The position numbers are program-made. Shown here in pieces: positions 15,001 through 18,000 of a stretch of 64,000 bases of DNA; positions within the stretch are counted from its first letter, which is position 1, and the number at the start of each line of letters is the position of its first letter. Location: NCBI RefSeq assembly GCF_009931435.1, contig NZ_CP043414.1, one strand, 5' to 3'. Origin of the DNA: Escherichia coli (lineage in GTDB: Bacteria; Pseudomonadota; Gammaproteobacteria; Enterobacterales; Enterobacteriaceae).

Positions 15001-18000
15001 TTAAAACCAGTTTCCTTGTGTATTCTTTCTAATACTTTATGGACGTAATGCCAAGATCCCATATCAAGTAATTTTGCAAGTTCAGATATGGTGTAGGGAT
15101 AGCTTGCGTTAAGTGCTTGACCATTATTTAACTCTGCAATTCCATAAAGTTTCGCTAACACGTTATCTTGCTCAGCAATGTTCTTAAGCATTTCAAAATC
15201 ATATGGAAGCTCTTGTTTTACAAGAGATTGAGAGGCAAATGTATAGGTTCTGGCTAATAGCGCCCTGACTAATTTTGGGTTAACACTGATTTCTGGCGTA
15301 TTTGACGATAGGGCATCATAAATCCAACCGAAATCATTGGCATAGATCACTTTGATTCGGATGCTTTTATTTTCACCAACACCAATCAAAATCTCTTTCT
15401 GGTGTGAACCTGTACCTTCACATTCTGGACTAAAGGAAACCAAATAAATATTCGGAATCAAAGCGTTATTCGGCGCAATTATCTCATCAATATCAGACAG
15501 GATGGCTTTAATATTCTCATCATTAATACTATAGCCAATGAAGAACAACGGATGCTCGACGAAATATGTTAAAAGTTTTGCACTGATATACTTTTTACGC
15601 TTATAAAACTCAACATAATCTTCATTTGTTATAATGATGCTTTCTGGTTCTTTACTACTGCCGTGAATCTTCATGATTTCACCGTATGTAGTATAGTTAA
15701 CAGTCACAACATTATGGCCAACTATCGGTTGGTAGTTATCAAATATCTTTTCAAGCAGATCGTCATAGTTTGTTGTAATAATGGCATGGGGCCTTACTTT
15801 TTTTAACTTTTCAATTTCTTCAGTGTACTCCATTGCTGAAAAATCAACCGAGTCTGAAAGGTTATTCAACAATGTTGCAATCTCATGCTTGATATAAATA
15901 TCTTTAGAGCTTTTTCCATTGAAATACTGTTCAGGATAACGAGATGTCCCCACATCCCAAGCCCACTCAGCGTATGACTCAGAAAAATCACTTGCTATCA
16001 ATGGTTTATTGTCATTTCTTGTTTGACTGTAGTAACCATACGGGCGAGTGATTAATGGGCAAGTTTCAGCGAGATACTTTAACAGGTTTTCCCAATCAGG
16101 AGCTTTCAAGTAGCGTTGAGATACCCCTGCACCCATAAAGAGAATTGGCTGTACCTGTAAACCTTCAAGACATGATTTGATATCTTCAATTATTTCTGTC
16201 TGATATTCAGAGAAGTCCATACTTTAGCCTTTAGGATGTGAGATGCTGGAGTAGTAAATCGCCGCGGAGCGGTTCGGGGTTCTGTGACACTCGAATTTTA
16301 CCTCGGTTATATAATATCATTGAAGTTATTTGCATTTCTCAGAAATCTTCTCTGGCTTTAATTGCTATAGCCGAAAGATAGCGCACACATCGCCGTTGGT
16401 CAGTTAGTACGAGGTTTCCGCCAAGTTCACCTTTTACCAAAGATGGCTTCAGAGCTTCCCTGAAGCTTTATCATGGCTTCAAGTAGGTCATCTTCGTTCA
16501 GTGAGCGCTGAGATTTGTTGATGCTAGGGGCGTGCCGTCTGCAGGAAGGCTCATCACCAGAACAAGGTAACGATTGTGAGCGATTATTGTCCCGTTTTGT
16601 CTGGATCTGACGGGCAACATCCAACACATGGCCAAGTCTCTTGTTATCTACAATGGCGACGCTCTCAACCTCAGAAAGCCGGTCATAGGTGGAGTAGGGC
16701 AGCAGCATGCCATTTAGTCGCAGCTCCTTATGTCCGTCAGGATAATGCCAGACATCAATGTACTTGCCGATGGCTCTTCGACTGTATTCGCTGTCCTCAA
16801 TCAGATAGAGGATTTTATCGTATTGTACAGTCAGACTTTTTGATACACGCCGGGGCTCTCGCCAGGTAAATTCCGCATCAAGGTCATCGTCTAGTGCCAG
16901 TGGCCGGTGCGCGTTAAAATCATGCAAGGGCGCTTTGGCAAAGCGTCGGTTGTAATCCGCAATGTATTCTTCTGCAAATCCATTGGCCGCTTCTATAGTA
17001 CAGATTCCCCTAAGCCTGAGTTCCTTAACCAGCCGGTCCTGAAGGGTTAGATGAGCACGTTCCACACGGCCTTTTGCCTGACTGGTTTCTGCGCACAGCG
17101 GTGTGATATTGAGGGAGCGCATGGCCCTGGCAAACTGAGTTTCACCGGGACCGAGGGTAGCATGCTTATTGTTTACCCGGAAGACATTGGCTTTGTCGCT
17201 GTAGAGGATCATGGGCTTACCATGTTTTTCGATATAGCCAAGAGTTGCTTCAAAATAGGTAAATGTGGATTCAGATTTCACAAACAGCAAGTGCATCAGG
17301 CGACTGGTGGCATCGTCAACATAGACAAGAGCTGTACAGGGTCGACCCCGGTTTTCAAACCAGTGGTGGTCACAGCCATCAATTTGTATCAGCTCGCCAG
17401 TACAAGGCCGCCGGTAACGAGGCTGATGAATTTTAGGTGCGCGCTGTCTGCGTGGGATCCAGAGTCCGGCTTTTATCATGAGACGTCGGATGGTTTCTTT
17501 GCCAAGGACCAGACCGTGAACTTCCTCCAGTTTTTCCCGCGCCAGCGTGGGGCCAAAATCACGGTATTGCTCCCTGATTATACTGAGAGCCTGATCTGTC
17601 AGTGACGCTGGCAACAGACGGTTACCAGTGCGGCCACGACTCTGGTTGTTCATGCCAAGCGGTCCGAGTTGACGATAGCGTTTCAGCAGTCGGCTGCAAT
17701 GACGTGGTGTAATGCCGAGCATCTCCGCAGCTTGGCCAGGACGCAGATTGCGATCGATGACATCCTGAAGGATTTTGAGGCGGTTGATTTCTTTCACGTT
17801 GAACATCCCGGCGTCATGTATAGCCATAGAAAACTCCTCATCAGGAAAAGTGAGTCGTTGTCTAGACATACAGGTCTGAGAACTATAGCCTGGACATTCC
17901 AATGAGCCACAAATAGACATTAGCATTGAGCCTCTACAATGTTGGTGCGCATAATGTATATTATGTTAAATAGCCTACGATGGTAAACAACTTCATATCT

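Follow-up and report, generated by a model that had tools for sequence, protein, structure and literature searches.

A SIR2-type gene as probable cargo of an IS1202-family insertion sequence beside dif in Escherichia coli

The window analysed here is a stretch of 64,000 nucleotides from Escherichia coli (contig NZ_CP043414.1, RefSeq assembly GCF_009931435.1). We are confident that positions 14746-17938 of the window represent one intact cargo-carrying insertion sequence (IS), a so-called transporter IS (tIS), of 3193 bp whose anatomy is that of the ISAba32/ISAjo2 subgroup of the IS1202 family. It stands 5 bp from the chromosomal dif site and contains, in addition to its transposase gene, a gene for a SIR2-like protein. 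The original prediction, made by a reader of the sequence without database searches, had described an ISNCY-like DDE transposase of 466 aa at 16427-17827, within about 200 bp of the start of the SIR2-like gene. It had failed to find the ends of the element and had considered that the element might be truncated, might have mobilised the SIR2-like gene or might have disrupted an upstream partner of that gene. The transposase and its distance from the SIR2 start (206 bp, on the same strand) proved to be as described, and mobilisation of the gene is now supported by the boundaries of the element and by a second copy in Pantoea. The suggestions of a truncated element and of a disrupted partner did not hold.

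Boundaries, target site and transposase

The extent of the element follows from its 5'-TGT...ACA-3' termini, its inverted repeats and a target-site duplication (TSD). A repeat search limited to 15900-18700 returned chance-level pairs and no plausible ends, so the earlier failure to see inverted repeats or a duplication around the transposase gene alone was correct as far as it went. The explanation is that the left end of the element lies at 14746, beyond the SIR2 gene. With the search widened to 14600-18100, imperfect inverted repeats were found at 14745-14795 and 17889-17939. The transposase-distal end (right inverted repeat, IRR; 14746..14795, plus strand) begins with 5'-TGT and forms an inverted-repeat pair with the transposase-proximal end (left inverted repeat, IRL; 17889..17938, minus strand), which was delimited by inverted-repeat and junction comparison. 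Each end is about 50 bp long, imperfect, and carries two copies of a motif, one terminal and one inner. The IRR has its terminal repeat at 14746-14771 and its inner repeat, GGCTCATTAGAAATGTCCA, at 14777-14795. In the IRL the terminal repeat TGTAGAGGCTCAATGCTAATGTCTAT (17913-17938, read on the minus strand) has a C at position 9, and the inner repeat is GGCTCATTGGAATGTCCA (17889-17906). The two terminal repeats, TGTAGAGGC... and TGTCAAAGC..., agree at 19 of 26 positions. The end motif is confined to the ends of the element (3 matches in the 64-kb window against 0.02 expected) and is likely to be the motif bound by the transposase.

The pentamer ATGTT precedes the distal end (14741..14745, unstranded) and is repeated after the proximal end (17939..17943, unstranded), where it doubles as the 5-bp spacer between element and dif. 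Since this duplication and the repeats bracket 14746-17938, the element is 3193 bp long and the SIR2 gene lies inside it. Clear ends with the SIR2 gene outside them had been named beforehand as the observation that would speak against a link between the two genes; the outcome was the opposite, clear ends with the gene inside. Homology with copies in other contexts begins at 14741-14743 in plasmid copies, the few bases before 14746 being the shared 5-bp duplication, and at 14699 in a chromosomal copy (L003; L numbers denote the loci compared in this work). The junctions, printed for all copies, place the TGT start at 14746 and the ACA end at 17938 with ATGTT on either side. The TSDs of the sister copies are ATGTT, ATCTT and GAGTT, each matching its own pair. 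In other words both ends are defined, a TSD and a full-length transposase with its catalytic signature are present, and the element is intact.

The 28 bp that follow the right pentamer, GGTGCGCATAATGTATATTATGTTAAAT (17944-17971), are the only exact 28/28 match in the window to the E. coli dif sequence. This dif, GGTGCGCATAA-TGTATA-TTATGTTAAAT (17944..17971, plus strand), is the target of the insertion; it is intact and lies outside the element. The transposase-proximal end faces it, with the end of the element at 17938 and the start of the XerC arm at 17944, leaving 5 bp between. E. coli K-12 MG1655 provides the empty site: the hipA stop codon is followed by 76 bp and then by the identical 28 bp, without insertion, and the sequence reads ...ggtttATATT before dif, with the pentamer present once. 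The GC skew over the window shows no clean switch at dif because mobile DNA fills the right-hand side, and it is the synteny with K-12 rather than GC skew that identifies the site as the true dif. The 32 bp conserved past the right repeat (17940-17971) were considered as a part of the element or as a long duplication, and both were ruled out, as the segment is simply the 5 bp and the 28-bp dif. Plasmid sister copies adjoin variant dif-like sites such as TGTGCGCATAA-TCTATC-TTATGTTAAAT and GGTGCGCATAA-CGTGGA-TTATGTTAACC, with a spacing of 5 bp to the XerC arm in each case.

The transposase gene (16427..17827, minus strand) encodes a 466-aa protein with helix-turn-helix (HTH) and DDE domains of the IS1202-family type. 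Counted from the first ATG, the open reading frame (ORF) has 499 aa (16427-17926, minus strand); the 466-aa form is the RefSeq annotation in the 99.9%-identical copy of E. coli R32_14_1F. The protein matches the NCBIfam profile NF033594 (ISNCY family transposase) with 471.9 bits at a cut-off of 250, and N-terminal matches to HTH_28, HTH_23 and HTH_29 were found. In an alignment of 10 homologues residues D150, D171, D172, D211, E256 and Q263 were invariant, Q263 standing seven residues past the E.

These properties agree with what has been published for the ISAba32/ISAjo2 subgroup of the IS1202 family. Its members insert with the transposase-proximal end towards the XerC arm, at a distance of 5 bp, and with a 5-bp TSD (the range for the subgroup being 5-6 bp); their ends have TGT/ACA termini and imperfect repeats of 24-26 bp whose core recurs further inside, and position 9 of IRL is a conserved C; and their DDE motif has two extra D residues and a Q seven residues past the E, giving a signature D...DD...D...E with Q instead of K or R (PMC10132070; bioRxiv 10.1101/2022.12.17.520857). 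The window element shows all of these sequence-level features in its ends, TSD, spacing and orientation towards dif and DDE signature, which place it in the IS1202 family, formerly filed under ISNCY. A few members of the family are tIS elements (ISKpn21, ISKpn65, ISKpn63 and ISRel10) with passengers of unknown function (PMC10132070; bioRxiv 10.1101/2022.12.17.520857). The window element has the same standing, with the SIR2 gene (14868-16220) between ends at 14746 and 17938.

Going by published work on the family, the transposase would recognise a dif-like site, possibly via bound XerC, and the element would move by a copy-out-paste-in route with a circular intermediate. Anything between the two ends, the SIR2 gene included, would travel with it. 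As dif is left intact on insertion, the site would be a safe landing place. Cargo varies in the segment from the transposase stop codon to the distal end. The expected junction of the circle is ...TTTGACA, 5 bp and TGTAGAGG..., on a molecule that includes the SIR2 gene.

Copies in E. coli and relatives in other species

Among 5426 complete E. coli genomes a near-full-length match was found in 206, which share both annotations (transposase and SIR2). The SIR2 version is intact in one of them, R32_14_1F (99.9% identity). The transposase has internal deletions in the 205 others, and SIR2 is still annotated as intact; the host thus appears to keep the cargo in this lineage while the transposase decays. 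The SIR2 version was present on chromosomes and on no plasmid, at the hipA-dif site in the loci examined. Upstream of SIR2, each E. coli locus that was examined in detail has the transposase gene of the element itself. Together with SIR2 homologues that have no conserved neighbour (see below), this leaves the idea of a disrupted upstream partner without support.

It might be thought that the element is an immobile fossil, with the anatomy described above, a dead transposase and a SIR2 gene retained by the host. Such a view is compatible with a cargo-carrying IS at 14746-17938 and differs from it on present activity. The 205 decayed transposase genes beside intact SIR2 ORFs, and the restriction of the SIR2 version in E. 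coli to a single site and to chromosomes, are in its favour. In the window and in R32_14_1F, however, the transposase is full length with all invariant residues, and both ends and the TSD are perfect. We consider a fossil a possibility to be taken seriously, though on balance an unlikely one.

A cargo-carrying IS that has moved is suggested by Pantoea sp. 1.19 (L067), which contains a diverged copy with 74% nucleotide identity, a decayed transposase and a split SIR2 gene. Flanked on either side by AATGG, this copy adjoins the Pantoea dif, GGTACGCATAA-TGTATA-TTATGTTAAAT. Because it has its own TSD and its own dif, it represents a second, independent insertion of a SIR2-carrying element.

Relatives in other species were collected with the transposase as query from one genome per species, which gave 73 loci. 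A validation script required a dif-like site, 5 bp and TGT..., followed at the other end by ...ACA and the same 5 bp. The 5-bp duplications were validated in this way for L009, L013, L015, L016, L019, L022, L026, L027, L030, L040 and L045, and the pattern of ...ACA, 5 bp and an XerC arm was seen in about 30 loci from other species. Elements without cargo measured 1479-1698 bp (L027, L030, L040, L045). Those with a passenger measured 2194 bp in Raoultella (GrpB protein; L016), 2278 bp in Klebsiella and Leclercia (DUF6904 protein on the opposite strand; L013, L015), which is the published length of ISKpn21, and 2350-2352 bp where a DUF6904 protein is encoded in L021 (2350 bp; the pentamers differ at one base) and L022 (2352 bp). 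A MarR-GNAT protein was found in an element of 2764 bp (L009) and a protein with AbiJ_NTD4 and DUF7014 domains in elements of 2801-2812 bp (L003-L006, L026), which compare with 3193 bp for the window element and its SIR2 gene. A 1268-aa CHAT-domain protein was the single cargo of a 5574-bp element in Providencia vermicola (L019, 4874-10447; TSD TAAGT).

The last of these is the largest element of the transposase clade among the loci compared; a near-identical copy in P. stuartii (L018) stands outside the validated set. In Erwinia sp. JUb26 (L012, 6438-10595) a 93%-identical transposase gene is followed by genes for a receiver-TCAD9 protein, a GHKL ATPase and an SMC/AAA ATPase with Ppl/LmuB-like PADLOC matches. 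The three genes look like a multi-gene defence cargo. L008 and L012 have transposases 93-94% identical to that of the window, but the 5 kb of flanking sequence compared showed no distal end in either locus. Tandem pairs of ISNCY-type elements at one dif-like site were present on pECO-109b (L005, 421-4688) and pSA186_2 (L082, 3547-8019). Successive insertions at one site, as these pairs show them, have already been published for such elements.

The SIR2 gene and its place in the element

The passenger gene (14868..16220, minus strand) encodes a 450-aa SIR2_2-domain protein, a candidate defence-type NADase according to Pfam, PADLOC and solved relatives. The protein matches PF13289 with an E-value of 3.5e-26 and positions 10-349 of the PADLOC profile PDC-S25, which has 517 positions, with E = 2.5e-82. 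Among proteins of solved structure DSR2, ThsA and KomC, all of them anti-phage NADases, stand closest to it. The ThsA, LmuA and Dsr profiles match the SIR2 core only (residues 130-248 for ThsA). Thoeris combines a SIR2-SLOG effector with a TIR-domain partner, ThsB; here the SIR2 core alone matches ThsA and the element has no second cargo gene. DSR1 and DSR2 are proteins of about 1000-1200 aa in which a SIR2 domain at the N-terminus is combined with a large C-terminal sensor, as compared with 450 aa in this case, and the Dsr2 profile NF041819 gave 23.7 bits against a cut-off of 1400. By domain homology the protein most likely acts on its own as an abortive-infection defence that degrades NAD+.

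Full-length homologues of about 450 aa are widespread and occur in differing mobile contexts. No conserved neighbour was found at the Providencia, Vibrio and Pseudomonas loci, and these varied contexts argue against a lost partner gene of SIR2. In Vibrio the homologues lie within integrase-bearing islands. In Providencia hangzhouensis (L085, 1-6775; 75% identity) the homologue is at the edge of a filamentous, inovirus-type prophage, and in Pseudomonas aeruginosa (L090-L092; 47% identity) at the edge of a Zot/Pf-like filamentous prophage; coat gp8, Rep_trans and Zot genes were recognised in these prophages. The Providencia contig terminates in ...CATTATGCGAACC; this dif-like XerC arm has the same sequence as the arm of the internal site of the window element described below.

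Comparison of sister copies showed that the SIR2 gene occupies a segment which is replaced in other elements with the same backbone. Copies of about 92% identity were present in more than 1000 E. coli records, and the megablast matches to these all spanned 16262 to 17971/2. In four unrelated contexts, a chromosome and plasmids (L003-L006), a gene for a 313-aa 'STM4504/CBY_0614 family' protein, AbiJ-like, stands in the place of SIR2, always at the same distance past the transposase gene, and after it the sequence matches window positions 14741-14866 again with 97.6-98.4% identity. Homology to these copies therefore stops at 14866 and resumes at 16262, which defines a variable cargo segment (14867..16261, minus strand) and a backbone spacer from the transposase stop codon to the cargo (16262..16426, minus strand). 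A third variant, on plasmid pSA186_2 (L082; 3014 bp, TSD ATGTT), has a Zn-ribbon gene and two small ORFs. One backbone thus exists with three cargoes: SIR2, the AbiJ-like gene, and three small genes. The variants part right after ...GAACCGCTCCGCGG (window 16262) and rejoin at TGGTTCGCATAATGACG... (window 14866). Position 16262 does not mark the end of an element, as neither an inverted repeat nor a TGT/ACA terminus is present there. The cargo segment has a G+C content of 35-38%, compared with about 50% in the transposase module, which fits acquisition of the cargo from elsewhere.

Both boundaries of the segment have features of their own. On the distal side the variants rejoin at the XerC-like arm of an internal site that resembles dif, GGTTCGCATAA-TGACG-TTATGCTAAAG (14839..14865, minus strand). 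This site abuts the cargo boundary in the opposite orientation to the external dif; it agrees with dif at 19 of 22 arm bases, and its spacer is 5 nt long. An equally good site occurred in 0 of 300 shuffles. The SIR2, AbiJ-like and three-gene variants all have the site, which is lacking in other relatives and in the elements of ISKpn21 length. Directly downstream of the cargo, in conserved backbone, RNA folding predicted a GC-rich, terminator-like hairpin with A/T-run flanks (14803..14843, minus strand); the fold of 14790-14870 on the minus strand has -36 kcal/mol (z = -6.0 against shuffles), is kept in all three cargo variants and was missed by a simple terminator scan. On the proximal side the backbone spacer holds a 30-bp block (16309-16338; GAAATGCAAATAACTTCAATGATATTATAT, minus strand) that is 100% identical across the three variants, with flanks that differ by 8-15%. 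The block coincides with a weak dif-like match (15 of 22) and might, at a guess, be the cargo promoter. The origin of the internal dif-like site was sought in the dif flanks of 30 species, in relatives and at the proximal cargo junction, and nothing convincing was found. These features may represent a backbone promoter and terminator, a relic of the first capture of cargo, or a working exchange site; the internal dif-like site itself is probably a relic.

If it were a working site, the backbone would be a reusable slot, and single-gene defence cassettes (SIR2, the AbiJ-like gene or the Zn-ribbon trio) would replace one another at the distal boundary, possibly by XerCD capture from dif-dwelling elements. 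The slot may then be defined by the 30-bp block, the conserved terminator and the degenerate Xer-type site. One candidate source of the SIR2 gene may be the SIR2-bearing filamentous prophage of Providencia, whose dif XerC arm is the same, GGTTCGCATAA. We regard this scheme as rather unlikely. Were it true, transposition and Xer recombination would be linked in one system for the shuffling of defence genes at the replication terminus of Enterobacteriaceae.

A different proposal is that the unit moves by XerCD recombination altogether, in the manner of an Acinetobacter dif module or of integrative mobile elements exploiting Xer recombination (IMEX), with the transposase and SIR2 genes bracketed by the external dif and the internal site. 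The inverted arrangement of the two sites is that of dif modules, whose genes are bounded by two functional XerC/XerD sites, the internal one lies exactly at the cargo boundary, and SIR2 homologues stand beside filamentous prophages in Providencia and Pseudomonas, in the former case with the dif-like contig terminus mentioned above. The spacer of the internal site, however, has 5 nt, compared with a 6-nt fit in all element-adjoining dif-like sites of this work, and relatives exist without any internal site. The conserved mobile unit also reaches 93 bp past the internal site, to the repeat at 14746, and a 5-bp TSD, the mark of transposition and not of Xer recombination, brackets every independent copy. 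Spacer and duplications together argue against Xer-mediated movement at the present day, and the proposal is very improbable. Least probable of all is a simple transposase-only IS of about 1.7 kb, perhaps truncated, beside an unrelated chromosomal SIR2 gene by chance: although the megablast matches reach no further than 16262, which leaves 41 bp to the start codon of SIR2, and no repeats flank the transposase gene alone, the other copies run on from 16262 into a different passenger and then into the same 121-bp distal end (14746-14866 in the window, 98% identity), the 5-bp TSD brackets 14746-17938, the Pantoea copy holds SIR2 within its own TSD, and SIR2 lies inside the element or a decayed form of it in every SIR2-positive E. 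coli locus examined in detail.

Some points weigh against our interpretation of 14746-17938 as an intact cargo-carrying IS with a defence gene. All E. coli SIR2 copies could stem from a single insertion, given their single site, and the evidence for movement is comparative rather than experimental, consisting of independent insertions with distinct TSDs. The transposase had no sequence match among solved structures. A promoter and terminator consensus scan of 14650-18050 gave matches no commoner than in shuffled sequence, and no promoter for the transposase or SIR2 gene was found by it; an outward-facing TTGACA at the distal tip resembles that published for ISKpn21, and we claim no promoter there. 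The proposed anti-phage role draws on PDC-S25, a PADLOC candidate family (a single-gene SIR2 candidate) for which no experimental validation was found, and on NADases that match residues 127-247 only.

If the interpretation is right, the SIR2 gene is a self-contained cargo of a site-specific transposable element and not a chromosomal gene with a lost partner, and it could move among chromosomes and plasmids wherever a dif-like site exists. It would also explain why annotation pipelines and readers by eye miss the ends of such 'ISNCY family transposase' genes.

Surroundings of dif and relation to known mobile elements

The XerD side of dif serves as a landing site too. In R32_14_1F an element of 12.8 kb (L081, 109-12920) lies exactly at the junction of dif with the sequence found next to it in the window (17972-19048). 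Its genes encode two tyrosine integrases, a 787-aa protein, a 147-aa protein, an AAA ATPase and 'ABC-three component system' proteins, and it ends with a partial copy of the XerD arm, GTTAAAT. A window ORF at 17980-18417 has 73% nucleotide identity with the gene for the 147-aa protein, and the window may hold the remnant of a related element to the right of dif. Mobile DNA thus lands on both sides of the E. coli dif. In several species a motif such as TTAACTTACTTCATGAA or TAGTTCATAAC is found again 10-25 bp past dif. On the other side, hipA of strain 405 (L002, 8375-9070), which represents the decayed copies, has a shortened product of 231 aa in the annotation, named 'HipA N-terminal domain' protein.

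Further away, a leucine-rich-repeat ORF like the N-terminal part of an IpaH-type effector (19692-20738, minus strand) abuts an IS21-type istA/istB pair (20754-22555); one E. coli match annotates a NEL-type E3 ligase gene in the region matching 19692-22555. The G+C content of 42000-52000 is 59-65%, compared with about 45% around it, and this segment is probably foreign DNA.

The kind of element described here is already known. With tISKpn21, tISKpn65, tISKpn63 and tISRel10 the window element shares the layout of proximal end, transposase (466 aa here, 467 aa in the published case), passenger and distal end, the TGT/ACA termini, the 5-bp TSD and the insertion 5 bp from the XerC arm of dif or dif-like sites, on the side of the transposase-proximal end. 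It is larger, however (3193 bp, compared with 1980-2528 bp in the published members), and its passenger is a recognisable SIR2 defence-type gene, whereas the published passengers belong to no Pfam family of known function. The window transposase is about 70% identical to those of the 2278-bp elements of Klebsiella and Leclercia, which we took as ISKpn21 from their length alone; in these the DUF6904 gene is on the opposite strand, whereas SIR2 is on the same strand as the transposase gene. Two copies usually count as the same IS in ISfinder at or above about 95% nucleotide or 98% amino-acid identity. Comparison with these ISKpn21-length elements speaks against the window element being ISKpn21 or an isoform of it, given the amino-acid identity, the other length and the other cargo. 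A literature search found nothing that ties IS1202-family elements, ISKpn21, PDC-S25 or the RefSeq protein accessions to defence cargo, and within the literature that could be searched this is the first such element with a recognisable defence-type function of its passenger.

The ISAjo2 and ISAba32 elements of Acinetobacter follow the same target rule and agree in TSD length, in their ends including the inner repeat core and in the DDE signature with Q seven residues past the E. They measure 1.48 kb, lack cargo and occupy mainly plasmid dif-like sites, unlike the window element with its cargo at a chromosomal dif in Enterobacteriaceae. Acinetobacter dif modules and IMEX resemble the window element in their association with XerC/XerD sites and in having a gene cassette beside a dif-like sequence; in contrast to them, its movement is marked by inverted repeats and 5-bp TSDs.

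Tn7-like transposons carry defence cargo at attTn7. They use a site-specific 'safe haven', have TGT/ACA ends and a TnsB-like transposase, and hold variable, often defensive cargo near one end. The window element shares these features of a safe-haven transposon but lacks TnsA, TnsC, TnsD and TnsE, makes do with a single transposase and is targeted to dif instead of glmS. At least two genes of a recognisable defence type, SIR2 and the AbiJ-like gene, are found on one backbone, which suggests that dif-targeting IS elements are a further vehicle for the spread of anti-phage genes, with a logic comparable to that of Tn7-like elements at attTn7.

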